From the NCBI GenBank assembly GCA_051418015.1, contig JBPRGF010000033.1, forward strand, positions 52,298-116,297: a DNA stretch of 64,000 nt. The letters run 5' to 3'. Position numbers and translations under genes: made by a program. Below are positions 25,375 to 49,329 of the stretch, in pieces. The DNA is from Candidatus Nitrospinota bacterium M3_3B_026 (GTDB taxonomy: Bacteria; Nitrospinota_A; UBA7883; JBPRGF01). A model generated the notes under the pieces. It saw nothing but the letters and a program-made list of their open reading frames with translations, was not told where the DNA came from and made no database searches. Positions within the stretch are counted from its first letter, which is position 1. The number at the start of each line of letters is the position of its first letter.

Positions 25375-25395
25375 TGAATTCGATGGGAGGCTCAC

Positions 25396-26448: not shown

Positions 26449-26451
26449 CCT

Positions 26452-27699: not shown

Positions 27700-27724
27700 G
27701 AAATTTCAGGCGAGGAGGAAAAAA

Positions 27725-28189
27725 GTGTACCGGATAATGGTGGTGGACGATGAGAAGGAGTTTTTGGGCCTGGCGCAAAAGCTTCTGAGCAAGGACTACG
27801 CCGTGGAGGTTTTCGACTCTCCCCTGAAGGCGCTGGAGAGGGCGGATCAGCAGACCTTCGACGCGGTGATATCCGACTACCGGATGCCGGAGATGGACGG
27901 GGTGAAGTTCCTGAAGGTTTTCAAGGAGCGCCAGCCCAACGCGGCGAGGATAATCCTGAGCGCCTACCAGGATAAGGACGAGCTCATCGGCGCCATAAAC
28001 GAGGCCCAGATCTACCGTTTTCTCTCCAAGCCGTGCAACGTCATGGAGCTTGTCATGACCATCGCCCAGGCCATAGCCCACAGGGGGCTGCTGCTGGAGA
28101 GGGAGCAGCTGGCCGAGAAGGTGAAGACCCAGGCCGCCGAGATCGAACAGTTGCGGGCGGAAGTCGAGCGCCTCAGGACGGGAGGCTGA
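27725..28189 (+). CDS. Single-domain response regulator with coiled-coil tail
   Basis: VVDDE, ISDYRMPEMDG, FLSKP; GAGGAGG before GTG. Confidence 0.88.
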   Translation: MYRIMVVDDEKEFLGLAQKLLSKDYAVEVFDSPLKALERADQQTFDAVISDYRMPEMDGVKFLKVFKERQPNAARIILSAYQDKDELIGAINEAQIYRFLSKPCNVMELVMTIAQAIAHRGLLLEREQLAEKVKTQAAEIEQLRAEVERLRTGG

Positions 28190-28381: not shown

Positions 28382-29461
28382 TTGCTGATGCTAGACTTTG
28401 CGCGGGCGCTCCGCCCGGTTCCTTACGCGCTGTTGATAATGTCCGTCCTCGCTGTCCCCGGCGTTTTCGGCCAGGAGAAAAAACCCGCCGGAGAGCAGGC
28501 CGCAAAGGAGCCTATGCCTCCGTTCGCGAAAGTGAACGACGTCGTGTTGACCCTCCAGGACTTCAGGGGCGCGATGATTCAGGCCGTCCGTTCCAAGTAT
28601 TATCATGGCAAGGTCCCCGAGGGAGAGATGGCCGTCCTGCAGAGGGAGGTCGGCCGGAAGATGGTGGACAGGATACTGCTTGTGGAAGAGGCCAGGCGGC
28701 GCGGCCTGGAGCCGGACAGTAAAAAGGTGGACAAGCAGATTACCATGTTCGACGACAAGTACGCCGGCAGCGAGCGCTGGAAGGCCGAACGCGACAGGAT
28801 CATACCGGGTCTCAGAAAACAGATGGAGGAAGACAGCCTGGTGGAGGTCTTGGAAGAGCAGGTGAAAGGCTCGGTGGACCCCTCCGAGGCGCAGGTCCGG
28901 GAATATTACGAGCAGAACCCGGACAAGTTCACCGAGCCCGAGCAGGTGAAAGTCTCCGCCATTCTTTTGAAGGTGGAGCCTTCCTCGCCCAAGGAGGTCT
29001 GGGAGAAGGCGATCGAGGAGGCGAAGGATATAAAGAAGAGGATCGAGGACGGCGGCGATTTCGCCGAATTGGCCAGGATACATTCCGGCGACCCTTCCGC
29101 CGAGAAGGGCGGGGACATGGGCTACCTGCACCGGGGAATGTTGGCCGAAAACGTCCACAAGGCGCTGGACGAGATATCCGCGGGAGACGTGACGGACCCC
29201 GTGGTGATCCTGCAGGGGGTTGGCGTGTTCCGCCTGGACGACCGCAAACAGCCGAAACTCAACGAGTTCAAGGACGTCCGGGAGCGGGCGGAGGCTCTTT
29301 TGAAAAGAGAGCTTGCCGAGAAGGCGTGGGAGGATCTCAAATCGCGGCTGAGGGAGGGGGCCTCGATAGAGATCAACGAGTCATACTATCTTCCGGCGCC
29401 TAAAGACGATGGAGACGAAAAAGAAGAGAAGGGGGGAGCCGAAGATCGCCTTCATGGCTGA
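28382..29461 (+). CDS. Periplasmic parvulin/SurA-type peptidyl-prolyl isomerase
   Basis: Signal peptide, SurA-like N domain, DFAELARIHSGDPSAEKGGDMG. Confidence 0.9.
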   Translation: MLMLDFARALRPVPYALLIMSVLAVPGVFGQEKKPAGEQAAKEPMPPFAKVNDVVLTLQDFRGAMIQAVRSKYYHGKVPEGEMAVLQREVGRKMVDRILLVEEARRRGLEPDSKKVDKQITMFDDKYAGSERWKAERDRIIPGLRKQMEEDSLVEVLEEQVKGSVDPSEAQVREYYEQNPDKFTEPEQVKVSAILLKVEPSSPKEVWEKAIEEAKDIKKRIEDGGDFAELARIHSGDPSAEKGGDMGYLHRGMLAENVHKALDEISAGDVTDPVVILQGVGVFRLDDRKQPKLNEFKDVRERAEALLKRELAEKAWEDLKSRLREGASIEINESYYLPAPKDDGDEKEEKGGAEDRLHG

Positions 29462-29484: not shown

Positions 29485-31635
29485 ATGACGGCGTTTCACC
29501 CTCGTTGCGGATGGAGAGGCGCCGCGGCCGCCGTGGCGATGACGGCGGTTTTTCTTTCACCGTTTTCCTCCCGTCCCGCCGCGGCCGGGGATGAGGAGGA
29601 CGGAGGATCGCCCGGCCGGGGGGCGGGCGTTAGGCTCAGGATCATAAAAGTTATCTCCACGGAGGAGGGGGAAGGGGTGGAAGCGCCCCGTCTTGAACAG
29701 GCGTTCGGAAAAATCCGCCTCACGGCGTTCGATACGATTTCCGAGGAGAGCATGGGAGTCGCCGAAAGGATGCTCGCGCCCGATGAGGAGCTTGCCCCCC
29801 TTGTACGAATCTCGCCGCGGGTGTTGAAGAGGAAAAGGGTTGTGGTGAAGGTGTGGAAGCCATGGGCGCGCGCCCTCATGTACAACCTGACCTGGGGGGG
29901 GTATATCTACGATTTTTACAACAGGCAGTCCTGGGAGGGCGGGGAAGGATTCGAGCGCAACATGCTTGGCCTGCGGCTCAACGTCAGCACCAAGAGCTTC
30001 ATATGGCGGCCTTGGTTCGCCCTCGTGGACGGCGGTGTCGGCCTCTACGCCTCCCGCACGGCGGGCCGGAATATCGCGGGCTATACCTCGAACACCCTCC
30101 TCGGCGATCTGGGGCTCTCCGTTTTCCCTTACAGCAGGTTCCCGTTCCAGGCGAACTACTCCAGGAACAGGACCGACCAGGGCGGCGACCTCAGGGACAC
30201 CCGGACGGAAACCGAGCGCTACTCCGCGCGGCAGAATTACAGGACCAGGGGCGGCACGAATTTCTCCGGGGGCTACCTGCACACCGACGTCAAGACGGAA
30301 AACCTGCAAGCCGGCGGATCCAGTGAAAACAACACGACACGGAGCGTGCTGGACACGTTCGACTTCAGCGCGTCCAAAAGCATCGAGGATCACAGCCTCG
30401 GCCTCAACTCGACCTACAACAAATCGAAACGGGTGGATATCACCAGGGATTACAACACCCTGTCGGTCATCGGCAGGCACAGGTACACCCCGCGGGGGTC
30501 CTTCTCGCTCGAGAACGAGGCGAACTACTACAACTATTACGAAAGAGCCGTGACCGGCTACAAGGCCGGGGCGGAGGAATTCATCTGGGACCAGGACATA
30601 TACCAGGTGACGAGCAACACCTACTGGCGGCCGGAGGACAAGCCGCTGACGGTCAACGCCGGCCTCCGGTACTACGGCACGGACACTGGAAGATCGTCGT
30701 CAAGGACCGGCGGCGCTCCCTCCAACTTCCTCGCCAACGGGAGCGTCTACGCGGGGGCCAACTACTCCGTGAACGAAAACACCAACGTCTACGGAACGGC
30801 CAACTACTCCAAGCCGCTGGAGCCCCCCACTGACTCCTACATAGCGAACCAGTCGTTCGGCGTGACCTATTCGGCCGACCCGGTCGATTTTCTGAAGATG
30901 GACTACACCTGGGGCAACCAGGCCGGGATGAGCCACAGCATGTCGGACCGGAGCAACAGTCTGCGCCTCATGGAGACCATAAGGCACGGCCTCCAGAAGG
31001 GTTTCGATATCGGCGAGTCCTCCTCCATCGACATCAGCGTGGACGAGAGCTTTTCCCTGGACCATTACGCCAACGCGGCTCACGGCTTTTACGAGACCCC
31101 AGAGCCGCGGACGCGGGAGACAATCACTCACGCCGCGTCCATCTCCTGGCTCATGTCGGGGATGTGGGGCAGAGGCGTCGTCAGGCTGTCCGGCTCCGAC
31201 AACAGGAGCAGGGGCGTGATGGAGGGGGGGGAGGTCGTATCACAATTCGTCTATTTCCAGGCGAGCCTGGACAGGCGGCTGAGCAAATATTCGCTGGTCT
31301 ACGTCGACTGGGTCACACAATACTCGGACAGCAACCTGAATGACAACGATTCGATTGGCGGACGGGTAAGATCGCACGGCCTGGCGCAGTACAAAAACAG
31401 CAGGCTCTTTGGCGTGGGAGGGCTTTCTTTTCAATCGTCGTTCAGGGTCGAAGGCAGGTCCTATTTCCCGGGAATTGAAAGCGAAGAGGAATCATCCGAG
31501 ACGATCTCCTGGGTGAACAACCTGGATTACAGCATCGGCAGGCTTCAGACCGCGGCCATGTACAGCATCGTGCAGACGGTCGCCGGGCGGAGGGACATTT
31601 TAATGTTGCGGATTTCGCGCAACTTCGGTAATTAG
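29485..31635 (+). CDS. Outer-membrane beta-barrel protein (cytochrome-cluster porin)
   Basis: Signal peptide; Tyr/Ser/Asn/Thr-rich amphipathic strands; FIWRPWFA and SRFPF; terminal strand MLRISRNF. Confidence 0.75.
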   Translation: MTAFHPRCGWRGAAAAVAMTAVFLSPFSSRPAAAGDEEDGGSPGRGAGVRLRIIKVISTEEGEGVEAPRLEQAFGKIRLTAFDTISEESMGVAERMLAPDEELAPLVRISPRVLKRKRVVVKVWKPWARALMYNLTWGGYIYDFYNRQSWEGGEGFERNMLGLRLNVSTKSFIWRPWFALVDGGVGLYASRTAGRNIAGYTSNTLLGDLGLSVFPYSRFPFQANYSRNRTDQGGDLRDTRTETERYSARQNYRTRGGTNFSGGYLHTDVKTENLQAGGSSENNTTRSVLDTFDFSASKSIEDHSLGLNSTYNKSKRVDITRDYNTLSVIGRHRYTPRGSFSLENEANYYNYYERAVTGYKAGAEEFIWDQDIYQVTSNTYWRPEDKPLTVNAGLRYYGTDTGRSSSRTGGAPSNFLANGSVYAGANYSVNENTNVYGTANYSKPLEPPTDSYIANQSFGVTYSADPVDFLKMDYTWGNQAGMSHSMSDRSNSLRLMETIRHGLQKGFDIGESSSIDISVDESFSLDHYANAAHGFYETPEPRTRETITHAASISWLMSGMWGRGVVRLSGSDNRSRGVMEGGEVVSQFVYFQASLDRRLSKYSLVYVDWVTQYSDSNLNDNDSIGGRVRSHGLAQYKNSRLFGVGGLSFQSSFRVEGRSYFPGIESEEESSETISWVNNLDYSIGRLQTAAMYSIVQTVAGRRDILMLRISRNFGN

Positions 31636-31804: not shown

Positions 31805-32260
31805 ATGTTAAGGAAAAAATGTAAAGAAGTGTTCAGGAGAGCCTTCCTTCCATTGCTGGCGGCGGCCCTGGTGGCGGGAATGCTCCTGCCGGGGCAGGCC
31901 CGGGCGGAGTACGCGGACGTGGTGATCAACAACTATTCGGACGAGCAGGGGATGCGTCCGGCCGTGTTCCCGCACTGGTTCCATCGCATCAGGTTCCGGT
32001 GCAAGGTCTGCCACGCCGACCTGGGGTTCCAGTTCAAGGCTGGCGGAAACAAGATAACGATGGCGAAGATCATCGAGGGCGAGTTCTGCGGCGCCTGCCA
32101 CAACGGCGAGGTGGCCTGGTCCCCGCAGAACTGCGACCTGTGCCATTCCGGCGTGCCGGGAACTCCCACACAGGTCCACGGAAGCACGGCACAGACGCTG
32201 GTGACGCCGGTGGGCATCCAGAAGTTCACCATCGAGGAAAAGGACACCTTTGAAAAATAA
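31805..32260 (+). CDS. Triheme c7-like cytochrome (type A)
   Basis: Signal peptide; VFPHWFH, CKVCH, CGACH, CDLCH. Confidence 0.9.
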   Translation: MLRKKCKEVFRRAFLPLLAAALVAGMLLPGQARAEYADVVINNYSDEQGMRPAVFPHWFHRIRFRCKVCHADLGFQFKAGGNKITMAKIIEGEFCGACHNGEVAWSPQNCDLCHSGVPGTPTQVHGSTAQTLVTPVGIQKFTIEEKDTFEK

Positions 32261-32287: not shown

Positions 32288-32914
32288 ATGAATCGCAAGC
32301 TTGTAATCACTCCTTTAGTGATAGTGGCCGCGCTGTGTATCGCGCTGGAGCCGGCCCGCGCCCAGGAGCCGGCGAATCCCCCGCAGGGTGGAGGAAACAA
32401 GGCGGGCATACAGTTCAACAGGTTGCTCAAAAAACCCAAGGTCTACAACCCCCCTCCAGCCGAAGACGGGGCCCACGACCCCCAGAACGAGGGGACGTAC
32501 ATGCTCCAGCCCCCCATGGATGTGTTCAAGCACATGCCCAAAGCCCAGTCCGGCAACAGGGTGGACTGGGTGAAAGCCCTGAACGACGGCGTCATAAACC
32601 CGCGCTGGGACAGGCTCGACCCCGCGGCCGAGCCGGACGTGTTCGAGTTCGACGTGCTCCGGGAAGTGCGCGGCTCCATGCCCAACGTCCTCTTCCCCCA
32701 CGACAGGCACACCCAGTGGCTGGCCTGCGAGAACTGCCACGACGACATCTTCATCCCCCAGGTCGGAGCCAACCAGATCAGCATGGCGCTTATCCTGATG
32801 GGGCAGAAATGCGGCGTGTGTCATGGCAAGGTGGCGTTCCCGCCGACCCAGTGCAGAAAATGCCATAGCCAGAAAAAGGACGCTATGGTGAAAAAGAAAC
32901 CCAGACAGCAGTGA
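32288..32914 (+). CDS. Triheme c7-like cytochrome (type B)
   Basis: Signal peptide; HDP..., GNRVDWVKAL, FPHDRH, CENCH, CGVCH, CRKCH. Confidence 0.9.
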   Translation: MNRKLVITPLVIVAALCIALEPARAQEPANPPQGGGNKAGIQFNRLLKKPKVYNPPPAEDGAHDPQNEGTYMLQPPMDVFKHMPKAQSGNRVDWVKALNDGVINPRWDRLDPAAEPDVFEFDVLREVRGSMPNVLFPHDRHTQWLACENCHDDIFIPQVGANQISMALILMGQKCGVCHGKVAFPPTQCRKCHSQKKDAMVKKKPRQQ

Positions 32915-32927
32915 GAGAACCAGCCAG

Positions 32928-34115
32928 ATGAGAAGTTACTTCATTAAAGCGGCGGCTGGGATGCTGGCGATCGGCCTTGCGGCCGGTTGCCAGTCCCCAG
33001 GCCCGCCCAAAAAAGAAACGCTCAAAAAACCCTCGGCTGAGCAGGCGGCTGAGGGGGAAGAGGAGAAACCCGCTGAAGAGGCCCCCTCTCCGGGTCCGGT
33101 AGTCTCCGAGCCCAAGGCGGAGGAGCCGCCAGCCGCGCCGCCGCCCGAGCCCGCGGTAAAAGCGGAAAAGCCGGAGGCCGCGGAGCCGGAGCGCCAGGCC
33201 GCGGAGCCTGAGAAAGCGCCGGAGGAGAAGGAGGCGCCAGAGCCTCCCGTTGCCGCCGAGGCCCCTCCGGAGCCTGCGCCCAAGAAAGAGGCGGCGACCA
33301 TCCGCGGCGGTAAACCGAAGCTCTCCAAAGATAAGCTGGAAATGCGTGTCAGCTACCTGGAAAGCCTGGTTTACAAATCCTCTTCCGCCAAAAAAGTCGA
33401 AGAGAGCGGCAACGAAGAGGCCATGGCCGCCCTTGCCCGCTCCAGGGAGCTTTATAAGCACGCCCGGGCCGCCCTGGAAAAGGACGACCTGGAAGGCTCC
33501 GATGACGCCATGAGGGAGTCCATGAGACTCGTCGGCGTGGCGTCGCGCATGGCGACAAGCCCCGAAGAGAAAAGCGCCCGCGAGCGCGAGAAATATCTCC
33601 AGACGAAAAAGAGCGTGGAGAGCCTGCTTGACGCCATCGACAGAGTCGTCAAGGAGAACGGCCCGGAAAAAGAGGAGCTTGGCGTCGACCCGGCCCCCAT
33701 CCACAAGCTCTATGACGAGGCCGAGGCGCAGGCCTCCGAGAAAAAGTACAAGGAGGCCAACGTCAAGATTGACGAGGCATACGCCCTGGCCTCCTCGGCC
33801 GTCACGAAGCTCCGGGACAAGGAGACGATCCTGCTGACGCTCGAGTTCGAGACGCCGGAGGATGAATATAAATACGTCCTCAAGCGAAACGAAAGCTACG
33901 AATCGCTCATCTCTATCATGATAGAGGAGAAAAAACCGGGCGAGGGGCAGCTTGAAAGGATCAAGGGGTTTGTGGCTGAAGGCCGGTCCATACTTGAAAA
34001 AGCCGAAAAACTCGCCTCCCAGGGAGACTTCGAACAGGCCATCCAGTTCGCCGACGATGCCACGCGCGAGCTTGCCAAGGCTCTGCGGACGCTTGGGCTC
34101 ATGGTGTACGATTGA
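32928..34115 (+). CDS. Alpha-helical lipoprotein with Pro/Glu/Ala-rich linker
   Basis: Lipobox LAAGC; ~100-aa P/E/A/K tract; helical domain with LEFETPEDEYKY. Confidence 0.8.
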   Translation: MRSYFIKAAAGMLAIGLAAGCQSPGPPKKETLKKPSAEQAAEGEEEKPAEEAPSPGPVVSEPKAEEPPAAPPPEPAVKAEKPEAAEPERQAAEPEKAPEEKEAPEPPVAAEAPPEPAPKKEAATIRGGKPKLSKDKLEMRVSYLESLVYKSSSAKKVEESGNEEAMAALARSRELYKHARAALEKDDLEGSDDAMRESMRLVGVASRMATSPEEKSAREREKYLQTKKSVESLLDAIDRVVKENGPEKEELGVDPAPIHKLYDEAEAQASEKKYKEANVKIDEAYALASSAVTKLRDKETILLTLEFETPEDEYKYVLKRNESYESLISIMIEEKKPGEGQLERIKGFVAEGRSILEKAEKLASQGDFEQAIQFADDATRELAKALRTLGLMVYD

Positions 34116-34137
34116 CGGAAAGTTTTTTCTTCGGAGC

Positions 34138-35028
34138 ATGAAAGAGGCGATCGCGCCGGTCGTGGCCGTTTTGCTTCTCGTCTTCGCCTCCCCGGCTGGA
34201 GCGCAGGGGAGGGGGGCGGAGTTCAAGGCGGGGCGGATTGACAGGAGGCTCCAGTCCGTGACAACGCTGGTCGAGACGTCCTCCCTGGCGCTGCGGATCA
34301 GGTCCAGCGGGTCCGTGGAGGCGGAAAACGTCCGCCTGGAGGCCGAAGCCGTACTCGAACAGGCCGAACAGGCCGCCGCCCGCGGCGACGATGACGAGGC
34401 GGGAAGGCTGCTCATCGAAGCCCAGAAAAAGGTCTATCAGGCCGCCAGTCTCCTGGGCGGCGGCCCCGGCGCCGGGGAGAAAAAACGCAGGGATTTCAAA
34501 CACAGGCTCAAGAGCGTGAAGGCCCTGCTGGAGGCCAACAGGCGCGTCGGGGGCGAAATCGAGGACACCGGGGAAAAAGAAAGACGCCGGGAACTGGCCG
34601 AAAGGGTCGCCAGCCTGCTTGAGGAGGCGATGGCCCTGTATGACGCGGGCGAGGTGGGCAAGGGCCGGGAAAAGCTGGACGAGGCCTACGCGACGGCCAC
34701 CAGCTCCCTCCGGAAGATGCGCCATGGCATGACGCGGGTGCGCGACCTTAAGTTCGAAACGAAGGAGGAGGAGTTCGAGTTCGTAAAACGCTACAACGAC
34801 GACTACCTGAACCTCGCGGACAAGTTCGTGAGCGATTACCTCAAGAAAACCGAAGACACGGCCCGGGCGGAAAGGATGAAAAAATACTTCAAAAGGGGCA
34901 AGGAGTTGCGAGTCGAAGCGGACGGGCTGGCATCGGCCGGTGATTTCGAAAAGGGCATAGAAGCCCTGGAGCAGTCCACAAGGCAGATCAAGCAGGCCAT
35001 AAGGGCTACCGGGTTCATGATACCCTGA
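34138..35028 (+). CDS. Exported alpha-helical protein, paralog of the preceding lipoprotein domain
   Basis: Start MKEAIAPVV after GGAG; signal peptide; LKFETKEEEFEF and LASAGDFEKGI match upstream LEFETPEDEYKY and LASQGDFEQAI. Confidence 0.8.
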   Translation: MKEAIAPVVAVLLLVFASPAGAQGRGAEFKAGRIDRRLQSVTTLVETSSLALRIRSSGSVEAENVRLEAEAVLEQAEQAAARGDDDEAGRLLIEAQKKVYQAASLLGGGPGAGEKKRRDFKHRLKSVKALLEANRRVGGEIEDTGEKERRRELAERVASLLEEAMALYDAGEVGKGREKLDEAYATATSSLRKMRHGMTRVRDLKFETKEEEFEFVKRYNDDYLNLADKFVSDYLKKTEDTARAERMKKYFKRGKELRVEADGLASAGDFEKGIEALEQSTRQIKQAIRATGFMIP

Positions 35029-35172
35029 AACGTGGGAAGGGAATTTCGCCCCGCTCGAATGAAGGCGCCGCATGTCCGCTTCGGGCAAGACGGGATCGAC
35101 GCCGTTCCGGCCGGCGGGCGGAAACTCGTTGTCACATAAGGCATGAACATTGACTTTTCGGGGCAGGTCCAC

Positions 35173-35745
35173 ATGATTTTCGCCGTATCCGGGGGTAAAA
35201 GACTGATTTTGCTCATCGCGGCCACCGGCCTTTTTTTCGCGGCTCTGGCCGGAGCCGCGCGGGGCGACGAGCGGAAATGGGAAAAGATCGAGGGCGACGG
35301 GTTGCACGACCCTGAAGGCCCGGCCATACACACCCTGCAGGATCCCGGGGAAGCCCTCTCCGCCCTGCCGCCGGACCCGGGAAACGCCGGGAACAAGGTC
35401 AGCTGGCCGAAGGCGCTGGAAAATGGCTTTATAAACCCCAGGACCAGCTTTGACAACGAGAAGGAGATGCAGGTTCTGGACATGGACATCCTGTTCAAGG
35501 AGACGCGGGAGATGCCCATGGTCCTGTTCCCCCACGTAAAACACACCGTGTGGCTGGATTGCTCTAACTGCCACGACAAGATATTCAAAGCCAAGGCGGG
35601 CGCCACGCCGGTGAACATGTTCACCATCCTGATGGGGGAGCATTGCGGGAGATGCCACGGCGCCGTCGCCTTTCCATTGACGGAATGCTTGCGCTGCCAC
35701 AGCGTGGAGAGGGAAGGCGCCAGTGTCAAGCACAGGATGGAGTGA
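35173..35745 (+). CDS. Triheme c7-like cytochrome (type B')
   Basis: Signal peptide; DGLHDP, GNKVSWPKAL, FPHVKH, CSNCH, CGRCH, CLRCH. Confidence 0.9.
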   Translation: MIFAVSGGKRLILLIAATGLFFAALAGAARGDERKWEKIEGDGLHDPEGPAIHTLQDPGEALSALPPDPGNAGNKVSWPKALENGFINPRTSFDNEKEMQVLDMDILFKETREMPMVLFPHVKHTVWLDCSNCHDKIFKAKAGATPVNMFTILMGEHCGRCHGAVAFPLTECLRCHSVEREGASVKHRME

Positions 35746-36118
35746 CCGCCGGAACGCGGCGGCCGCAGCGGTGTTCGCCCTGGTTCTCTTCGCCGCGCCC
35801 GCGCGGGCGGAATACGGCGACGTCATAATCAACAACAAGGCCGAGGAATACGGGATGCGCCCGGTGATATTCCCCCATTGGTTCCATCGCATCCGGTTCA
35901 GGTGCAGGGTCTGCCACACGGACGTCGGGTTCGAAATGCGCGCGGGGTCCAACGACATAACCATGGGCAAGATCATAGACAGGCAGTTCTGCGGCGCCTG
36001 CCACAACGGTGAGATCGCCTGGGGACCGGAAAACTGCGACATGTGCCACTCCGGCAAAGCCGGGCTCAAGACCGGAGTCAGGGGAGGGCATCAGACCGGG
36101 GGGCCGGGGAGGTGGTGA
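35723..36118 (+). CDS. Triheme c7-like cytochrome (type A')
   Basis: AEYGDVIIN...FPHWFHRIRFRCRVCH, CGACH, CDMCH; start approximate. Confidence 0.88.
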   Translation: MSSTGWSDRRNAAAAAVFALVLFAAPARAEYGDVIINNKAEEYGMRPVIFPHWFHRIRFRCRVCHTDVGFEMRAGSNDITMGKIIDRQFCGACHNGEIAWGPENCDMCHSGKAGLKTGVRGGHQTGGPGRW

Positions 36119-37074
36119 CGGTCCGTTTTTTGCTTGTGCTGGTCGGCGCCGTGGCCGCCCTGTCCTGCTCCACCATTGAAAAAAGCCCCTCCGGCCCTGG
36201 CGCCGGGGAAAAGACCGGCCGGTCCTTCCTCGAGCCGTGGGGGGAGATATCCCGTCAGGTGGCGTCGATGGAAAACGGCGGGGAGAGAGATACGGCGCCG
36301 CCCCTGCGGCCGTTCCTTGCGCCGAGCGCCGTGGCGGCCAGAGATGAATATGTTTATATAGCCGACTCCGGCGCCGGATGCGTCTTCAGGTACAACAGCT
36401 ACAGCATGGCCCTCGCAAGGCTGGTGAGGCCGCCGGCTGATTTCCTTACCGATATAAAAGTCCTGGCCGACCACTCGTTCGTCGTGACCGATCCGTTCAA
36501 CAGCCGCGTGCTGCGCTTCGGTCATGACGGGAGCCTGAGGTGGGTTTTCAAGAACCGAACCTACCTGAGCCACCCCACCTCCGTCGCTGTGGACGAGAAA
36601 AGGGGCATGGTCTACGCCGCCGACGGGGCGGGCGGCTACATCGTGGCGTTCAACACCGCGGGCCAGGTGGTCAACGTCATGGCGGACTGGGTGTCCGGAA
36701 AGGAAGGCCCCATCGACATAGCCTCCATCGCCATGGGCCCCGACGGGCTGTACGTGGCCGACAGGGTCTCCCGCGCCGTCCATGTCTTCAACGGCGACGG
36801 GGAGCGGCTCTATTTTTTCGGAGACAAGGACCTTGGGGAGCCCCTGGCCCTCGACGTTGACGAAGACGGCAGGGTCTACGTCGCCGACGGGGCGGACAGC
36901 TCCATCAAGGTCTTCTCCGGCGGACGGCTGGTCTGGAGCGCGGGAAAAGAGGATGGCGGATGGGTCAGGTTCCAGGGTCTTTCGGACCTGGCCGTGGAGG
37001 ACGGGCGCCTTTACGCCTCGGACAACGTGTCGGGAAAGGTTTACATTTTCCTCGTCATGCCGGAGAATTTGTAA
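36115..37074 (+). CDS. NHL-repeat beta-propeller lipoprotein
   Basis: GTG overlapping upstream TGA; lipobox ALSC; repeated VYIADS/VYAADG/LYVADR blades. Confidence 0.85.
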   Translation: MTVRFLLVLVGAVAALSCSTIEKSPSGPGAGEKTGRSFLEPWGEISRQVASMENGGERDTAPPLRPFLAPSAVAARDEYVYIADSGAGCVFRYNSYSMALARLVRPPADFLTDIKVLADHSFVVTDPFNSRVLRFGHDGSLRWVFKNRTYLSHPTSVAVDEKRGMVYAADGAGGYIVAFNTAGQVVNVMADWVSGKEGPIDIASIAMGPDGLYVADRVSRAVHVFNGDGERLYFFGDKDLGEPLALDVDEDGRVYVADGADSSIKVFSGGRLVWSAGKEDGGWVRFQGLSDLAVEDGRLYASDNVSGKVYIFLVMPENL

Positions 37075-37119
37075 TGACGAATGTCCCGCTTTTCTATTTT
37101 CGCGCCGCTTGATTTGAAA

Positions 37120-38196
37120 ATGACGAACAGGGGAATTTTCAGGGCGTCCACGGCCTGGGCCGTTCTCGCCGTTTTCCTGGCCCTCGGCGGCTGCGCCGCG
37201 CCGAAATATTCCATGACGCTTGACGTCTACGGAATCAACGGCGATGTGGAGAAGGTCTGGCCGCCCGCGCCGGAGGTGCCCCGCTACATGTACATAGGGG
37301 AGCTTGTGGGTGAGCCTAACTTCGCGAAAGATTCGGGAGGCGGCGGATTCAGGAAGGCGCTGGAGGTCATCGCGGGAGTGATCGCGGGCAAGAGCGGGCC
37401 GGAGCTTTTGCAACGCCCCCAGGCCGGCGTGGTGGACGCTGAGGGAAACATTTACATCACCGACGTCAGCCGCCAGGCGGTCTGCGTGTTCCACCAGGAG
37501 AAGGGCTTTTTGGTCTGGGATATGATCAGCAGGATGGGCAGATTCGTATCCCCCATAGGCGTCGCCATCGGCAGGGACGGCGAGATTCTAGTGACGGACT
37601 CCGAGCTCGGCGTCGTCGTCCGGCTCGACAGGGAGGGCAAGCCGCTGGGGATATTCGGGCGCAAGGAGTTGACCCGTCCCACGGGGATAGTGGCCGATCC
37701 CGAGAAGGGCTTTGTTTACGTCGCCGACACACACGCCCACGACATCAAGGTTTTCGATTATGATGGCGGACTCGTGGGGACCATCGGAAAACGCGGCGAC
37801 GAGAAGGGGAGCCTCAACTTTCCCATTCATCTCGCCTTCTCCAAGGGGAGGATATACGTCACTGACACCCTCAACGCGCGCGTGCAGGTGTTCAGCGAGG
37901 ACGGGGAGTTCATAACGACTTTCGGCAGCCGGGGTCTTTACAAGGGGCAGTTCACCCGCCCGAAGGGCATAGCCCTGGACTCCGACGGCAACATCTACGT
38001 TGTGGAGTCATACTACGACCACCTGCTGATATATGACAACCAGGGCCGGTTCCTCCTGCCGATGGGAGGGGCCGGGTCCGATCCGGGCAAGTTCTACCTG
38101 CCGGCGGGGGTCTGGGTGGACGAGCATGACAGGGTATTCGTGGCGGACATGTTCAACCGGCGTGTCGTTGTTTTCCAGTACCTTGGCGGCTCCTGA
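37120..38196 (+). CDS. NHL-repeat six-bladed beta-propeller lipoprotein
   Basis: Lipobox LGGC; VWPPAPEVPRY; RPTGI, FPIHLA, RPKGIALD, LPAGVWVD. Confidence 0.88.
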   Translation: MTNRGIFRASTAWAVLAVFLALGGCAAPKYSMTLDVYGINGDVEKVWPPAPEVPRYMYIGELVGEPNFAKDSGGGGFRKALEVIAGVIAGKSGPELLQRPQAGVVDAEGNIYITDVSRQAVCVFHQEKGFLVWDMISRMGRFVSPIGVAIGRDGEILVTDSELGVVVRLDREGKPLGIFGRKELTRPTGIVADPEKGFVYVADTHAHDIKVFDYDGGLVGTIGKRGDEKGSLNFPIHLAFSKGRIYVTDTLNARVQVFSEDGEFITTFGSRGLYKGQFTRPKGIALDSDGNIYVVESYYDHLLIYDNQGRFLLPMGGAGSDPGKFYLPAGVWVDEHDRVFVADMFNRRVVVFQYLGGS

Positions 38197-38384
38197 CCCG
38201 CCACTCCCGGCCCGCTCCACGAGGGGCTTCCCGGCATTCGCCAAAGCGGTGATAGATGATGACGGCGAGCCCTCTGGCATGGTAAAATTTTATTGTTGAA
38301 AACGGCGGATTCCAGCGTCTTGCGCGCCGCCCGCCGTTCCGCGGTTCGATCGCCGCTTGTCATCGTTTCAGGGGATTATTGGGG

Positions 38385-40913
38385 ATGACTGACACCTGCC
38401 GCCGGGGGGGAGGCCTGCCGTGGATTGTGGCGTTCGCGCTCGCCGTTTTTTCCGCGTGGGGCGCGGAAGGCGCCAGGGTGGCCGACGTATCCAACACCAA
38501 GCATAACCTTTCCACCTCCGGGCCGGGGACGGTGAAAGCCACCGAGGAGACGCAGATATGCGTCTTCTGCCACACGCCTCACGGCGCGGAGCTCGACGAC
38601 CCCGACAACCCCACCCCCACGCCGCTTTGGAACAGGGAGTACTCGGCGGCGACTTATACGCCCTATACCTCCAAGTCGATGCAGGCCGCGGGCATGGCGC
38701 CGCCGGACCCCGGGCTGCAGCCGGACGGCTCCTCGAAGCTGTGTCTGTCCTGCCACGACGGCACGATAGCCATCGGCGCCGTCAATGTCCTGAACGGGCA
38801 GCTCATGACATCGCCCATAGGCATGGAAGGCGTGGGCACGAGCGTTCCCGGCGAGATGCCGGGCGGGACTTACGGCGAGACGTCGGGGTTCACGAGATTC
38901 ATCGGGACGGACCTGACCAACGACCACCCGATATCCTTCACCTACGACACCGCCCTGGCCACAGCCGACGGCGAGCTGCGCGATCCGGCGGACACGAACA
39001 ACGAGATAGACAACAGGACGCTCGGGGTGAAGCCTCTCGTGCCGCTGGAGAGCAACAAGGTCCAGTGCATAAGCTGCCACGACCCGCACATCCGCGAGAC
39101 CGACGACACCGCGGGCAACATCAACAACAACACGGTCAGCGCAAAGTTCCTGCGGCTCAACAGGTTCCAGGCGTCAAACCCCATCGGGGGGAACTTCGAC
39201 ACCGCCAACGACCTTGTCTGCCTGGCCTGTCATGATAAATTGGGGCAGGAGTGGGCCCGCTCCGTCCACGCAAATGACACCCACGCCAACGAGATATACA
39301 AGGACACCGAGGCCAACCTGCGGGAGTTTCCCACGGGGATCGAGGTGTGGCAGGCCGCGTGTATGAACTGCCACGACACCCACACCGTCCAGGGCGCCCG
39401 CAGGCTCCTGCGGGAGGGGACGGACGACACCAACACCCCCAAGCAGGGGGGGAACTCCGCCATAGAGCAGACCTGCTACCAGTGCCACACCACGTCGGCC
39501 TCGTCCATACTGCAGAGCGTAAGCAACGACGTCCCGGACATATACTCCGACTTCCAGCTGACAAGAAGGATGCCGATAACGGAGACCCCGGAGGCGCACG
39601 ACATAAACGACGCCGACTTCACCGAGGACCAGGCCACCCTGGGGTATAACAACCTGTCGAACCGCCATGCGGAGTGCACCGACTGCCACAACCCCCACAG
39701 GATAATCAAGAAAAGGCTCTTCACCGACACCAGCGCCCCCACCGCGGGCGACATCGCCACCCACGCAAGCGACGACACCGACCATGACACTCTCAACCAC
39801 ACGAACATAGCCTCCGGCGTCCTGCGGGGGACGTTCGGCGTCGAGCCGGTTTACAACGACAACGACTTCAACACCGACGTGAACGCGAACATAAGCTTCC
39901 AGGAAAAGCAGGGGGTCGGGAGCACGTCGAACGTCGGCGACGCCTGGGTGACCCGCGAGTACCAGATATGCCTGAAATGCCATTCCCACTACGGCTACAA
40001 CGATGACAACCAGCCCGACGGCAGCACCATCAGGCCAGCCCTTGGTTACGCGGGCGGGACGCCGTCGGGAACGAACGGGATGCAAAACTACACCAACCAG
40101 GCCAGGGAGTTCAACTCGCCCATATCGCACAAGGGTGAGGTGAGCCAGGGAAATGACGGTGGAGCGGAGCTGAACACCAACAACCACCGCTCCTGGCACC
40201 CGGTGATGAGAGAGACCGGCCGCACGGCGAGCGTCCGAGGCAGCATGAATCCGGCGTTGTTCCTCTCGCCCTGGAACAACAACATCGGGGGGCAGACGAT
40301 GTACTGCACGGACTGCCACGGCTCCAACACGGCGCTGGGGACGGTGGCGCCGAGCGCCGGGCGCGTTTGGGGGCCTCATGGCTCCGAGAACAACTTCCTG
40401 CTGAAGGGGGTGTGGGACACCTCCGTGGGTTCATCGGAGAACGGAGGCAGCGGGCAGGATGCGCTCTGCTTCCGTTGCCACGACTATAACAACTACGCCA
40501 ACCCGAATAATGGCTCTCCCGGCAAGAGCGGCTTCTCCACCCCCAACGGCAATTGCATGATGTGCAATTTAGGTTATGACAATAACCTCCACATCGGCCA
40601 CGCGCGGAGGATCGGCTATTTCCGGTGCAAGTGGTGCCACGTGATGGTACCCCACGGCTGGAAGAACAAGGCGCTGCTCGTCAACCGCAAAGACCTGGGG
40701 CCGGAGGTGGGACTCGGCGTCGGTACCAACGCGGGCAACCTGAACGGCGGCGATTCGTCCGTCACAACGATGTCTCCGTATTACTACGACTCGAAACTGT
40801 ATATCGACAGCTGGGCCGCGAGCGGTAACTGGGACGACGACAACTGCGGCGGCGGCGACCGGGGCATGGGCGGCGAATGGATGCCGAACAACTGCGCCTC
40901 CCCGCCGCCCTGA
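38385..40913 (+). CDS. Exported undecaheme c-type cytochrome (UetA/UetJ-like)
   Basis: Signal peptide; 11 CxxCH (CVFCH, CLSCH, CISCH, CLACH, CMNCH, CYQCH, CTDCH, CLKCH, CTDCH, CFRCH, CKWCH) plus CMMCN; Asn/Asp/Thr-rich. Confidence 0.92.
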   Translation: MTDTCRRGGGLPWIVAFALAVFSAWGAEGARVADVSNTKHNLSTSGPGTVKATEETQICVFCHTPHGAELDDPDNPTPTPLWNREYSAATYTPYTSKSMQAAGMAPPDPGLQPDGSSKLCLSCHDGTIAIGAVNVLNGQLMTSPIGMEGVGTSVPGEMPGGTYGETSGFTRFIGTDLTNDHPISFTYDTALATADGELRDPADTNNEIDNRTLGVKPLVPLESNKVQCISCHDPHIRETDDTAGNINNNTVSAKFLRLNRFQASNPIGGNFDTANDLVCLACHDKLGQEWARSVHANDTHANEIYKDTEANLREFPTGIEVWQAACMNCHDTHTVQGARRLLREGTDDTNTPKQGGNSAIEQTCYQCHTTSASSILQSVSNDVPDIYSDFQLTRRMPITETPEAHDINDADFTEDQATLGYNNLSNRHAECTDCHNPHRIIKKRLFTDTSAPTAGDIATHASDDTDHDTLNHTNIASGVLRGTFGVEPVYNDNDFNTDVNANISFQEKQGVGSTSNVGDAWVTREYQICLKCHSHYGYNDDNQPDGSTIRPALGYAGGTPSGTNGMQNYTNQAREFNSPISHKGEVSQGNDGGAELNTNNHRSWHPVMRETGRTASVRGSMNPALFLSPWNNNIGGQTMYCTDCHGSNTALGTVAPSAGRVWGPHGSENNFLLKGVWDTSVGSSENGGSGQDALCFRCHDYNNYANPNNGSPGKSGFSTPNGNCMMCNLGYDNNLHIGHARRIGYFRCKWCHVMVPHGWKNKALLVNRKDLGPEVGLGVGTNAGNLNGGDSSVTTMSPYYYDSKLYIDSWAASGNWDDDNCGGGDRGMGGEWMPNNCASPPP

Positions 40914-41023: not shown

Positions 41024-41109
41024 CAATGTCATTCTGAGCCGCAGGCGAAGAATCCCGCCGGGCTTGGCGAGGGCGACGGGATGCTTCGCTGTTGCTCAGC
41101 ATGACATTG
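41024..41109. repeat. 86-nt palindromic REP-like element (left copy)
   Basis: CAATGTCATTCTGAGC...GCGAAGAATCCC...GGGATGCTTCGC...GCTCAGCATGACATTG folds as one long hairpin. Confidence 0.85.
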
Positions 41110-41119
41110 GCGGGGCGTG

Positions 41120-41419
41120 ATGGCAAGAACGAGAAGGTATTATGTCTACATCATGACCAACAAACGCAATACCGTTCTTTATACGGGTGTGACCTGAAAC
41201 ATCCAGAGAAGGATGCGGGAGCACAAAGAAAAAATCATAAGCGGTTTTACTTCCAAGTATAACGCAATCAAGCTTGTTTATTACGAGGTTTTCAACAGTG
41301 TCCGCGAGGCGTTGTCCAGGGAGAAGCAGATAAAAGGATGGCTGCGCGAGAAAAAGATCGTGTTAATAGAGTCGGTGAACCCTGAATGGAAGGACTTGAG
41401 CGAGGATATTATTTGGTGA
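41120..41419 (+). pseudogene. Small GIY-YIG nuclease with in-frame TGA at codon 26
   Basis: MARTRRYYVYIMTNKRNTVLYTGVT*NIQRRMREHK...GFTSKYN..KLVYYE...REKQIKGW...NPEWKDL; TGA at 41195-41197; markedly lower GC than neighbours. Confidence 0.85.
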
Positions 41420-41428
41420 CGCCGACTT

Positions 41429-41618
41429 TGTCATTCTGGGGCCGGAGGCCGAAGAATCCCGACCGGGCATGGCAAAGGCGGACGGGATGCTTCGCTTCGC
41501 TCAGCATGACATCGGGGGTCCGGGGGTATGCTTCGCGGAGTTTATCCTGAGCCACCGCGAAGGGCCCGGCATGACATCGGATGCTTGGACGAGACTCTTA
41601 GCTTCGCTCATGATGACA
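41429..41618. repeat. Right copy of the REP-like element plus two degenerate half copies
   Basis: 41429-41511 TGTCATTCTGGGG...CGAAGAATCCC...GGGATGCTTCGCTTCGCTCAGCATGACA; further ATGCTTCGC...CATGACA (about 41528-41576) and GCTTCGCTCATGATGACA (to 41618). Confidence 0.8.
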
Positions 41619-41649: not shown

Positions 41650-42648
41650 ATGACGATCATCGAAGCGCTGGCTTCGCTGAGGTTTTCCCTCGTTCTCATA
41701 GCGCTGCTCTCGGCGGGCGCCATGCTGGCCTCGTATGACGTCTACCACGCGGGCTGGCTGGTGGGGCCGCCGATGGCGCTGCTGGCCGTGAACCTCGCCG
41801 CCGCGATCGCCGCGAACCCCGTCTTCCGCCGCCAGACGCCGCTGCTCATCTTCCATCTGGCGCTTTTGTTCGTGGTGGTCTTCGCCGCCCTCGGCAGGCT
41901 CTGCTACCTGAAAGGCCACGTGGAGGTGGCCGAGGGGACGCCGATGAACCCCGCCCTTGCGGGATATGAAAACGGCCCCTTGCACTTTTATAAACTGGAT
42001 GAAGTAAAGTTCGTAAACGCCGGATTTAAAATAGAATACGGGCCGGATCGCGAGAAGGGCAAGACGCTCAACAGGGTGGTCTACCAAGGGCCGGGGGGCG
42101 AGCGCCGGGAAGCGCTGATCGGCGACCAGGTTCCGCTGGAGATCGGCGGGTACAAGTTCTACACAACGTCGAACAAGGGTTTCGCGCCGGTCTTCACGTG
42201 GGCGCCCGCCGACGGCTCGCCCCCCGCGACGGGGTCGGTCCACCTGCCGAGCTATCCGAGATATGAGAAACGCCAGGCGATACCCTGGGAGATACCGGGG
42301 GCGGGGTTGAAGGTTTTCACGATGCTTGTCGTGGACGAGCCTGTCATCGCCTCCGGGAAGGTTTCGAGGTTCCGTCCACCTGAAAAGCATCACGTCATCG
42401 CGCGCGTGGGGGATGAGACGAAACGGATGAAGCCCGGCGACAGGCTGGAGCTTCCCGGGGGGACTTTGGTCTACCGCGAGCTTCGGACGTGGATGGGGTA
42501 TGGTATATACAGCGACTGGACGCTGCCGTGGCTTTTCGCCGCGTGCGCCGTGGCGGCGGTGAGCCTCGGGTGGTATTTCTGGGACAAGTTCGCGGCCTCG
42601 CCGTGGATGAGGGAGGAGGGCGCCCGTCTGTCCGGCGGCGCCTCGTGA
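41650..42648 (+). CDS. ccsB: Cytochrome c biogenesis protein CcsB/ResB-like
   Basis: LASLRF N-terminus, 3 TM with FHLALL His, periplasmic domain, C-terminal TM; adjacent to ccsA. Confidence 0.75.
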   Translation: MTIIEALASLRFSLVLIALLSAGAMLASYDVYHAGWLVGPPMALLAVNLAAAIAANPVFRRQTPLLIFHLALLFVVVFAALGRLCYLKGHVEVAEGTPMNPALAGYENGPLHFYKLDEVKFVNAGFKIEYGPDREKGKTLNRVVYQGPGGERREALIGDQVPLEIGGYKFYTTSNKGFAPVFTWAPADGSPPATGSVHLPSYPRYEKRQAIPWEIPGAGLKVFTMLVVDEPVIASGKVSRFRPPEKHHVIARVGDETKRMKPGDRLELPGGTLVYRELRTWMGYGIYSDWTLPWLFAACAVAAVSLGWYFWDKFAASPWMREEGARLSGGAS

Positions 42649-42675: not shown

Positions 42676-42769
42676 AATCCTCCCCCTTGAAGGGGGAGGA
42701 TTAAGGTGGGGGTGTTAAAAGAATCTTTATACACCCTCCCCTGTATCCCCTCCCGTCAAGGGAGGGGAT
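42676..42769. repeat. Composite double-hairpin intergenic repeat
   Basis: AATCCTCCCCCTT-G-AAGGGGGAGGATT, then GGTGGGGGTG...CACCCTCCCC, then ATCCCCTCCC-GTCAA-GGGAGGGGAT. Confidence 0.8.
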
Positions 42770-42842
42770 GGCTCCAGAATATTCCCCCGAGGGAGGGGCG
42801 GTGTTTTGGATAAAAAAGCCAAGGCAAGAACAGAGAAAAAGG

Positions 42843-43649
42843 TTGGAGACGGAGCTTAAAACCCTTTGGGCGGCGCTTGCCGTTTACGTGATCGCCGGCT
42901 GCCTGGCGGTTATCGGGACGATTTTGCGCAGGCGCCCGGAGAAGGTCCTGCTGGGCCTGATGGCGGCGGGGCTCGGCCTGCACGCGCTGGCCATCGGATT
43001 GCGCTGGGGGCGTCTTGGCTACGGGCCTTTCATCACGATGTTCGACATACTGTCGAGCAATATCTTCAGCCTGCTTTTCATCTTCACTTTGGCGTACTGG
43101 CGGTTCCGCCCCATAAGGCCCGTGGCGGCGGTCGTCCTGCCGGTGATGTTTCTGATGATGGGGTGGCTCATCGTCGTCGACCCCGCCGAGGGGCATTACC
43201 CCCCCACCTATGACACGATATGGCTTTACATTCACATCGGTTTCGGCAAGATTTTTATGGGGGCGGCGCTGGTGGCCCTGGGCATGGCGATAGTCATCCT
43301 CGTCCGCTGGGCGGGGGTTTTCGGGTTCGCCTCCCTGCCGGACAGCGAGAGCCTCGACGAGCTGGCCTACCGGTTCATGGCGATAGGGTTCATCTTCGAC
43401 GCGCTGATGCTGGTGGCCGGGGCTGTGTGGGCCCAGGACGCCTGGGGGCGCTACTGGGCGTGGGACCCGCTTGAGACATGGTCGCTTATCACGTGGCTGC
43501 TGCTGGCCTTCGCCCTGCACACCAGGATCACCCTCAAGACGGCGCCGCCCGTGGGGGCGGTGATGGTCATCGTTGTCTTCGCCGTGGCGTTCCTGACCTT
43601 TTTCGGCGTTCCCTTCATCTCCGAGGCGCCGCACAAGGGGGTGGTGTGA
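42843..43649 (+). CDS. ccsA: Cytochrome c biogenesis protein CcsA (System II heme lyase)
   Basis: WLYIHI; GAVWAQDAWGRYWAWDPLETW (WWD motif); C-terminal His; TTG start chosen downstream of the repeat. Confidence 0.9.
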   Translation: METELKTLWAALAVYVIAGCLAVIGTILRRRPEKVLLGLMAAGLGLHALAIGLRWGRLGYGPFITMFDILSSNIFSLLFIFTLAYWRFRPIRPVAAVVLPVMFLMMGWLIVVDPAEGHYPPTYDTIWLYIHIGFGKIFMGAALVALGMAIVILVRWAGVFGFASLPDSESLDELAYRFMAIGFIFDALMLVAGAVWAQDAWGRYWAWDPLETWSLITWLLLAFALHTRITLKTAPPVGAVMVIVVFAVAFLTFFGVPFISEAPHKGVV

Positions 43650-44233
43650 CGAAGCGGAAAAGGGATCGGCGCGCGCTGGCGCTGGGGCTTTCGCTCGCGG
43701 GCGTCCTGGCGCTGGGGACAGCGATACACTTCGCGCCGGATATCGACTTTCTCGCCTATTTATCCCTCGCGGACGAGGAGGCGGAGAAGGAAAAAAAGCT
43801 GAAGGAGCACGTCGACTCCGCCGTCGCGGCGGAGGTAGACAAAAGGTTCCGGCAGGCCGTCGCGATGCTCCACGCCAAAAAATACGAGTACGCCGCGTCG
43901 GCCCTGCATCGCGTGCTCGAGCTTCGGCCCAGGATGCCCGAGGCGCACGTCAACATGGGCTTCGCCATGCTCGGGATGGACGACTACAAGGCCGCGAGGG
44001 ACTTTTTCGAGGGGGCGATAGATATCCACCCGTCCCAGGAGAACGCCTATTACGGCCTGTCGCTTGCCCTGCGGGAGCTTGGCGATCTCGAGGGCGCCGT
44101 CGGGGCGATGCGGACCTATGTTCATCTTGTGAAACCTGATAGCCCCTACCTTGAAAAAGCCCGGGCCAGCCTGGAGGAGATGGAAAACGAGCTGACCGAA
44201 AAACGGGGCGAACGATCCGTTACGATCGAATAG
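43646..44233 (+). CDS. Membrane-anchored TPR protein
   Basis: GTGA overlap with ccsA; TM then TPR motifs PEAHVNMGFAM and ENAYYGLSLAL. Confidence 0.8.
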   Translation: MTKRKRDRRALALGLSLAGVLALGTAIHFAPDIDFLAYLSLADEEAEKEKKLKEHVDSAVAAEVDKRFRQAVAMLHAKKYEYAASALHRVLELRPRMPEAHVNMGFAMLGMDDYKAARDFFEGAIDIHPSQENAYYGLSLALRELGDLEGAVGAMRTYVHLVKPDSPYLEKARASLEEMENELTEKRGERSVTIE

Positions 44234-47375: not shown

Positions 47376-47648
47376 CCGCCGCCGGAAAAAATCGCCATCT
47401 TCTCCAGCCGCCTGCCTCAAAAGTTATAAAAGCCCCCGCTTCCCGGCGTTGCCTTGAGCTTGTCCGGAGCCCCGAAAACGTGATACTCTATTTATATTGC
47501 CTGGAGAGGAGAGTGTAAGCCTTTTCCAACCAATGAGATAGATGCTAAAATAAGACTGTGGCCGCGTTCCGCGTCATAGCGTGGTTCGAGGTTTCCGTCA
47601 CAACCAGATGTTGTATCCGTGTGTTTTTTTGGATGGCTTGCGTGATAT

Positions 47649-49328: not shown

Positions 49329-49329
49329 G

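Follow-up and report, generated by a model that had tools for sequence, protein, structure and literature searches.

The window analysed here is a stretch of 64,000 nucleotides from Candidatus Nitrospinota bacterium M3_3B_026 (assembly GCA_051418015.1, contig JBPRGF010000033.1, positions 52,298 to 116,297), and our subject is a predicted exported undecahaem c-type cytochrome of 842 residues that it encodes at 38385..40913 (+), which a motif scan and its homologues mark as a uetJ-type gene. The open reading frame (ORF), 38379..40913 on the forward strand, has 844 codons if counted from a TTG at 38379; the ATG at 38385 is the likely start of the gene, since this methionine is kept in 90% of homologues and an identical 842-residue protein is on record. 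Residue numbers below run from the TTG, so that the ATG is M3 and the chain ends at 844. CXXCH occurs exactly 11 times in the product, at residues 61, 122, 230, 281, 328, 366, 433, 531, 643, 697 and 750. A sequence-only reading of this DNA had quoted seven motifs from the N-terminal part of the protein, and all are found in the order it gave: TKHNLS at residue 40 (nucleotide 38496), ICVFCHTPH at 60, PLWNR at 82, SKLCLSCHDG at 119, DLTNDHPISFTY at 178, VQCISCHDPH at 228 and VCLACH at 280 (nucleotide 39216). The Asn/Asp/Thr-rich make-up that it described is borne out by the composition of the undecahaem (N 9.0%, T 8.8%, D 7.2%), in which Gly is also high at 10.7%. The chain opens with a probable Sec signal peptide (38385..38465, +), read from a hydrophobic stretch, LPWIVAFALAVFSAWG, that is followed by no lipobox Cys and that the structure model renders as a helix at 13-29.

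Residues 41-286 (38499..39236, +) form an OmcE-type tetrahaem module, delimited by phmmer, Foldseek, VIA-align and invariant alignment columns and made up of an N-terminal arm with the invariant pair His42-Asn43, haems 1-4 (C61, C122, C230 and C281) and the distal histidines His68, His183 and His237. When the protein was compared by phmmer with all PDB sequences, OmcE of Geobacter sulfurreducens (7tfs_A) was matched at E 4.8e-23 over query residues 30-238, and the only other real match was the OmcE bundle of Desulfuromonas soudanensis (9yuq_N, E 5.7e-15). The sequence-only reading had claimed that the first ~290 residues are such a module and had proposed a predicted structure searched with Foldseek as the check; the claim holds at the level of both sequence and fold. 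Single-sequence AlphaFold2 gave a predicted local distance difference test score (pLDDT) of 30.3 and was replaced by an alignment-based model from 81 sequences, with pLDDT 86.6 and a predicted template modelling score of 0.88. Foldseek of this model against the PDB recovered 7tfs at E 3e-8 with a target-normalised template modelling score of 0.69 and 32% identity, and beyond OmcE it matched nothing at E <= 0.001. VIA-align against 48,161 chains matched OmcE (Z 11.9, root-mean-square deviation (rmsd) 3.3 Å, 185 of 202 residues), laying model residues 41-286 on OmcE chain residues 30-231, which is the whole deposited subunit; a second look with VIA-align at six Foldseek chains added nothing. The likeness of the head to OmcE is far above chance, and the head has the full OmcE tetrahaem fold.

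The residues that would coordinate the haems of this module are conserved as well. C61, C122, C230, C281, His42, His68, His183 and His237 are invariant in the 81 aligned sequences and are aligned by phmmer to OmcE residues, and the arm, whose family consensus is SDIxNTKHNLS, keeps both His42 and Asn43 in every one of the 81. Since the 81 rows were selected for 11 CXXCH, the invariance of the motifs is there by construction, whereas the conservation of non-motif histidines is independent of that choice. Four CXXCH and four conserved distal histidines typify OmcE, with one His per haem and one of them swapped between subunits (PMC13712944), and inter-subunit His ligation is confirmed for such wires in the available text of three further papers, where it comes without a residue number (PMC12954529, PMC12307469, PMC9473688). 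C281-H285 is the fourth OmcE haem, since small paralogues in the same genome stop a few residues past it (...CLTCHDK) and the structural alignment reaches residue 286; everything from about residue 288 is extension.

That extension, residues 288-844 (39240..40910, +), carries haems 5-11 in 'doubled CXXCH' units, and the seven further haems that had been claimed to follow the head are accounted for by its motifs at 328-750. Pfam and NCBIfam matched the undecahaem to generic multihaem families only, namely Paired_CXXCH_1 (E 1e-26 over four stretches), Cytochrome_C7 and MtrC domain II/IV, and it is the four Paired_CXXCH_1 stretches together with hhalign that define the units. By hhalign the dihaem units of haems 3-4, 7-8 and 9-10 align with one another (probability 70-95%, E 4e-5 to 5e-8), an alignment driven mainly by the CXXCH motifs. 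We also considered a covalent trimer of OmcE modules with 4+4+3 haems. Along the chain there is indeed a recurring order of motifs (H, CxxCHxxH, CxxCH, H, CxxCHxxH, CxxCH), but the trimer was not adopted, since the modules fall out of register in hhalign and only the dihaem units match. Searched alone by phmmer against PDB sequences, the extension gave chance matches only (E 0.28 and 2.4), and an Atlas look-up returned only generic Paired_CXXCH_1 clusters. Its one structural match in VIA-align is a weak one to the MtrA chain of the Mtr complex (6r2q_A; 246 residues at Z 6.7 and rmsd 5.2 Å), colinear over model residues 116-768; this Z is below the level that shows kinship, and the match is consistent with an elongated wire. 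MtrA, the decahaem that sits in the MtrB barrel (PDB 6R2Q), is an elongated single-chain haem wire encoded beside a large barrel, as the present protein appears to be, but in families the resemblance is limited to generic matches, the DmsE family TIGR03508 scoring 35.9 bits against a cut-off of 192.2.

Thirteen non-motif histidines are conserved in at least 90% of the 81 rows, at 42, 68, 183, 237, 297, 335, 407, 430, 440, 607, 667, 738 and 759, which is two more than the number of haems. With 13 conserved spare histidines for 11 haems, bis-His ligation of the whole chain would be possible without any contribution from a neighbouring chain. One of them, His297, is 99% conserved and lies 12 residues past haem 4. 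Near the chain end Cys823 and Cys839 are conserved; the last 60 residues as a whole are poorly conserved and are modelled at pLDDT 64-66.

Judged by full-length homology, its eleven haems and synteny, the protein is an orthologue of UetJ. The genes uetABCDEFGHIJ ('undecaheme electron transfer') were defined in Tenderiales, 'Ca. Tenderia electrophaga' among them, by Eddie and co-workers (bioRxiv 10.1101/2022.05.06.490989), who describe UetA as a tetrahaem, UetB as a prolyl isomerase, UetC as a barrel, UetD, UetE and UetG as c7 trihaems, UetF as cupredoxin-like, UetH and UetI as NHL propellers and UetJ as a predicted extracellular undecahaem, after which ccsAB and nrfG follow; batABD genes are also named with the cluster. 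Their model of UetJ has 'a long, bar shape', and they raised the polymerisation of UetJ or UetA and guessed that both 'may interact'. The uet genes were later reported in Gallionella (PMC10734462) and in the Leptothrix group (PMC13386937). The Tenderiales protein compared here, that of a Ca. Tenderia sp. metagenome-assembled genome (MAG; locus L021), is 45% identical to ours over residues 34-824. UetJ shares with our protein the eleven CXXCH and the lack of any other recognised domain, and in L021 the neighbouring genes keep the same order from isomerase to TPR protein.

The sequence-only reading had suggested that a new filament type may form, but the protein belongs to a large family that already has a name. 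An exhaustive search of cluster representatives returned 4057 at E <= 0.001 and 301 at E <= 1e-30, and a word-indexed search returned 2858 relatives, the best 120 of which have 774-849 residues, are 49-100% identical and all carry 11 CXXCH. Of 212 homologues on record with 700 residues or more, 198 carry exactly 11 (the others have 7 in one case, 8 in one, 9 in three, 10 in five and 12 in four), and chain length varies across the family from about 600 to 1150 residues through varying loops. The relatives are named at source only as 'cytochrome c3 family protein', 'multiheme c-type cytochrome' or 'hypothetical'. In a collection of species genomes a relative is encoded in at least 532 of 652 matched stretches, and among the matches listed there most belong to Gamma- and Betaproteobacteria. 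Within 33 Nitrospinota genomes UetJ was found in five, our own included, at 56-61% identity and scattered across four families. Short representatives that match only the head or only the tail (P0113, P0110 and P0121, for instance) were considered as natural split genes and set aside, as they look like fragments or frameshifted calls. Some genomes hold several UetJ-sized frames: five of 812-943 residues in a Thiohalomonadales MAG (locus L017) and two in Motiliproteus sp. SC1-56 (locus L013). Culturable organisms among the carriers are Aromatoleum tolulyticum ATCC 51758, Motiliproteus sp. SC1-56, Sedimenticola hydrogenitrophicus and Inmirania thermothiophila.

The genes around the undecahaem in the window, all on the forward strand, fill every place of the uetA-J, ccsAB and nrfG synteny except that of uetA. 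A uetB-like SurA/PpiC-type prolyl isomerase (28382..29461; Rotamase E 7e-16, 39% identical to its positional equivalent in the Tenderia locus) is followed by the uetC-like candidate for a large outer-membrane barrel (29485..31635), a protein of 716 residues in no Pfam family that is placed by position and by weak similarity, being 24% identical over ~600 residues to the uetC-place genes of loci L021, L001, L005 and L016 (E 1e-15 to 2e-36). The prediction that UetC is a barrel comes from the Tenderiales preprint (bioRxiv 10.1101/2022.05.06.490989). Next come two c7-type trihaem cytochromes (31805-32260 and 32288-32914), uetD/uetE-like by family match and synteny, and a uetF-like lipoprotein placed by synteny and likewise in no Pfam family (32928..35028). 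The uetF place is covered by two ORFs that overlap in different frames (32928-34115 and 33952-35028), and it probably holds two genes, the second with a later start (~34129-35028), because relatives have either one gene of 514 residues (Ca. Tenderia sp.) or two paralogues of ~280-350 residues; Pfam detected no cupredoxin family in these ORFs. Two more c7-type trihaems follow (35143-35745 and 35723-36118; family match and synteny), which would be a uetG-like gene plus one extra, and then two NHL-repeat beta-propellers, the uetH-like first (36043-37074, its true start probably later; NHL E 1.5e-13, 35% identity to the Tenderia locus) and the uetI-like second (37081-38196; NHL E 4.3e-30, 49% identity), which has the lipobox LGGC. 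Beyond the undecahaem lie ResB/CcsB-like (41650-42648) and CcsA (42768-43649) proteins, a dedicated pair for system II cytochrome c maturation, both recognised by family match and synteny, and at the nrfG place a TPR protein (43478-44233, 42% identity) of uncertain start that overlaps ccsA in the ORF list.

The Tenderia locus itself reads small tetrahaem, isomerase, barrel, c7, c7, lipoprotein, c7, NHL, NHL, undecahaem, ccsB, ccsA and TPR, which is the uetA-J/ccsAB/nrfG order printed in the preprint (bioRxiv 10.1101/2022.05.06.490989). Compared with the Tenderiales cluster, that of the window lacks uetA upstream of uetB, has four c7 genes in place of three and carries the remnant of a GIY-YIG gene between uetJ and ccsB, and its host is a member of the Nitrospinota and not a gamma- or betaproteobacterium, with an RpoB whose nearest named matches are 'Nitrospinae/Nitrospinota bacterium' proteins (80% and below). 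At the usual uetA place, upstream of the isomerase, are three response regulators and a PAS/GAF histidine kinase. Signalling genes bracket the cluster on both sides, with a PAS/GAF histidine kinase of 1438 residues, two receiver-HD proteins and a lone receiver at 21058-28189 and a PAS/GAF protein, a HAMP histidine kinase and a sigma-54 activator at 44631-50712. The GIY-YIG remnant has 99 codons (41120-41419, +) and is interrupted by an in-frame TGA at 41195-41197, with Pfam matches at E 8e-4 for its first 25 residues and 1.3e-10 for its last 73. It is flanked by a repeat of ~85 bp (41028-41112 and about 41450-41512), which gave 27 short-blastn matches on 10 contigs, some of them beside small OmcE-like genes (contigs C9 and C1).

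Twenty-seven of 79 homologous loci combine a full-length match of at least 40% identity with a full 10-kb upstream flank, and among these the NHL genes are present in 24, c7 in 22, resB in 22, the isomerase in 21, ccsA in 20 and the barrel in 19. UetA, the small OmcE-like tetrahaem, stands in the same cluster in 19 of the 27. The uetA-place genes of Tenderia, Thiodiazotropha, Arenicellales and Rhodocyclaceae loci match residues 16-292 of our query at E 5e-23 to 5e-16, and on these matches UetA is itself an OmcE-like tetrahaem. We searched the genomes of five of the eight loci without uetA and found small OmcE-like frames elsewhere in four of them; in the fifth, a MAG, the query used found no such frame.

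The genome under study (2.85 Mb in 33 contigs, 97% complete) has one UetJ and 13 small OmcE-like ORFs with 3-5 CXXCH, the complete ones having 4 or 5, among only 31 ORFs with at least three such motifs. Ten are complete (C1:50818-51714, C9:65795-66763, C24:161565-162482, C31:20858-21877, two in C31:36185-38384, two in C31:200761-202894, C33:120464-121438, which lies ~4 kb beyond the end of the window, and C33:387613-388707) and three are truncated at contig ends (C26, C28 and C33:490739-491566); several copies stand at contig ends, as repeats do. All ten complete ORFs end in ...CHDK, and the NT[KR]HN arm is present in all seven that were inspected for it. About eight of the paralogues are pentahaem, and each one inspected has a further His ahead of its fifth motif. 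Nine of the ten complete copies make up one clade with near-identical ends (...SEFIPSFLRVNNNNASSLCLTCHDK) around variable middles. A FastTree tree of 83 rows was built from these ten complete paralogues (the three truncated copies were omitted), 28 small forms chosen by their motifs and 45 UetJ heads, which were the first 45 rows of the 81-sequence alignment. In it a branch with support 98 separates the 45 UetJ heads from all small forms, the nine local paralogues form their own clade with support 100, and C9:65795-66763 falls among proteobacterial UetA genes. Elsewhere in the genome, C29:171981-174860 encodes an ORF of 959 residues with 31 CXXCH motifs.

A second named system appears to be the same as uet. 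In 'Ca. Dechloromonas occultata' the occ cluster encodes OccP, an extracellular undecahaem of 922 residues with relatives at 40-60% identity in Beta- and Gammaproteobacteria, and the protein was detected in a Mn(III)-reducing enrichment (bioRxiv 10.1101/695007). It is an undecahaem of similar size to ours, and the occ cluster has six-bladed NHL proteins, a prolyl isomerase and many cytochromes, while three Rhodocyclaceae MAG loci (L016, L018 and L024) carry the same cluster as the window. Our protein is probably an OccP orthologue as well; the equation of occ with uet draws on the published description of OccP. The direction of electrons in the Mn(III)-reducing enrichment is opposite to that proposed for Tenderia.

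The comparison with OmcE extends from the head to the neighbouring genes. In Desulfuromonadia the minimal OmcE cluster has two multihaem cytochromes, two beta-propeller lipoproteins and a large barrel beside resB/ccsB (Petersen et al., PMC13712944), and the cluster in the window has the same gene content, its barrel being assigned by position and by the weak similarity of the uetC-place protein. The uet layout matches that of the omcE nanowire cluster, with UetJ in place of the short subunit, so that uet can be regarded as the version of that cluster with a long subunit. In the literature searched we found no statement of this equivalence; the word 'OmcE' is absent from the available text of the Tenderiales preprint and of the Gallionellaceae and Leptothrix papers, and one paper that names both OmcE and Tenderia treats each separately in the text available. 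The likeness is close, the head sharing sequence, fold, all four CXXCH and four distal histidines including the N-terminal NTKH arm, and the neighbour genes being similar. OmcE, however, ends right past haem 4 and polymerises, whereas UetJ has 842 residues and 11 haems and continues for 557 residues and seven haems from exactly the place at which the next OmcE subunit would stack, and its family is not known to form a filament. It lies outside the size range of the OmcE family, whose members have about 200-370 residues and 4-5 haems and end just past the last motif. It also differs from OmcE-like cores with an extra CXXCH, since those keep the OmcE length and add one haem inside the fold, while UetJ adds seven at the C-terminal side.

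We favour, at a probability of about one half, the reading that UetJ is a single-chain wire mounted at or through the UetC barrel that needs no polymerisation. UetJ would be exported by the Sec pathway and its haems would probably be attached by the CcsBA pair encoded just downstream, and the OmcE head together with the seven haems that follow would make of one polypeptide a continuous wire of about 11 haems. Its most likely seat is at the UetC barrel or through it, where it would pass electrons between the c7 trihaems of the periplasm and an extracellular donor or acceptor, solid or chelated; its location, its partners and this electron path are inferred. For Tenderia the proposed process is electron uptake, for Ca. 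Dechloromonas occultata it is Mn(III) reduction. Several observations weigh against a wire that works alone. The OmcE arm is kept to the residue in UetJ, the alignment starting at UetJ 41 on OmcE 30, and the arm histidine stands second in the deposited model of OmcE. By analogy with OmcS, we take this to be the histidine that OmcE donates to the neighbouring subunit. The invariance of His42 suggests a continuing role as haem ligand, perhaps to a haem of another molecule. In Geobacter and Desulfuromonas the accessory genes belong to a system that makes polymers, and a co-fold of head and tail passed, if weakly.

Alternatively, UetJ could be a head-to-tail homopolymer, as the sequence-only reading had proposed, in which haem 11 of one subunit would stack on haem 1 of its neighbour and His42 would cross the interface, giving a nanowire with a repeat of 11 haems. 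The invariant donor arm of the OmcE module and the equality of the accessory genes with those of OmcE nanowire clusters would then be explained, and by hhalign the tail dihaem of haems 9-10 aligns (probability 70%) with OmcE haems 3-4, the face that accepts the next subunit. The co-fold of residues 30-300 with 590-844 and four haems came out as 'weak support', with an ipSAE score of 0.40 (runs 0.36, 0.40 and 0.40) against 0.06 for the best of 3 controls, at least 56% agreement in contacts between runs and a partner pLDDT of at least 76. Of 157 solved complexes 116 reach this mark, as do 2 of 215 mismatched pairs, but scores of 0.60 or under account for only 18 of the 157 solved complexes together with both of the passing mismatches, and these benchmark counts apply only roughly to a co-fold with a custom alignment and a small molecule included. 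Unless the interaction was likely beforehand, a pass at such a level is wrong in more cases than it is right; moreover, the pieces have artificial cut faces, on the sides of haem 4 and haem 9, which in the intact chain are stacked on other haem units and could stick together, no interface was reported, and the contact could also lie within one chain. A haem ligand from the neighbour is unnecessary, as the 13 conserved histidines cover the 11 haems. The last 60 residues are weakly conserved and of lower pLDDT (64-66), a helical lattice would need to tolerate length variation from about 600 to 1150 residues, and a search for proteins of 1478-4220 residues found no tandem UetJ-UetJ fusion, which is weak evidence in the same direction. 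We consider the homopolymer unlikely.

The free arm could instead serve a filament of different subunits. If the UetJ head were to dock at a filament end, the filament being made of small OmcE-like subunits (UetA or its paralogues), then His42 would fill the unsatisfied haem of the last small subunit and the heptahaem tail would link the filament to the barrel and the trihaems. The head's own open site would be filled in cis, with His297 as the candidate ligand, and no further subunit could therefore add there. An ideal OmcE anchor has been described as OmcE-like, with nine histidines and four haems and encoded with its subunit, and no candidate of that kind was found in omcE operons (PMC13712944). 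The UetJ head with His297 fits the count of nine, and the place of the next subunit is occupied by its own extension while the His42 arm is left free. The frequency of uetA within these clusters (19 of 27 loci), the small frames elsewhere in four of the five uetA-less genomes searched, and the ratio of one UetJ to 13 small OmcE-like ORFs in the present genome, where C9:65795-66763 groups with the UetA of Pseudomonadota, speak for an adaptor, and an interaction of UetJ with UetA was guessed in the Tenderiales preprint also (bioRxiv 10.1101/2022.05.06.490989). Against this, the cluster in the window has response regulators where uetA usually stands and in one MAG among the five genomes searched the query used brought up no small OmcE-like frame. 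The ligation of haem 3 or 4 by His297 is suggested by position only, and which OmcE histidine is swapped is taken by analogy with OmcS. An anchor or adaptor of this general kind is in our view rather unlikely, and so, slightly more, is the full proposal that UetJ is the missing anchor of OmcE-type nanowires, with its head capping the acceptor end through His42, its own site closed in cis and its tail passing through the UetC barrel to the trihaems. The single-chain wire mounted at the barrel stays our preferred reading.

The gene itself is an ordinary member of a family present in several hundred species genomes, and its interest lies in what it connects. Nitrospinota are best known for nitrite oxidisers, and the present locus extends the uet system to a Nitrospinota genome that has 13 small OmcE-like genes besides. 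Two literatures seem to describe one machine, since UetJ begins with a full copy of the OmcE subunit and the accessory genes match: that of the uet/occ 'porin-cytochrome' clusters, whose hosts are electrode- and iron-oxidising or Mn(III)-reducing Proteobacteria, and that of the omcE nanowire clusters of Desulfuromonadia. UetJ is thereby a testable candidate for how cytochrome wires attach to cells. Should it act as an anchor, uet and omcE would represent one machine for mounting filaments in two versions, and there would be a concrete candidate for how such wires terminate and are wired to the cell, a question raised in PMC13712944.

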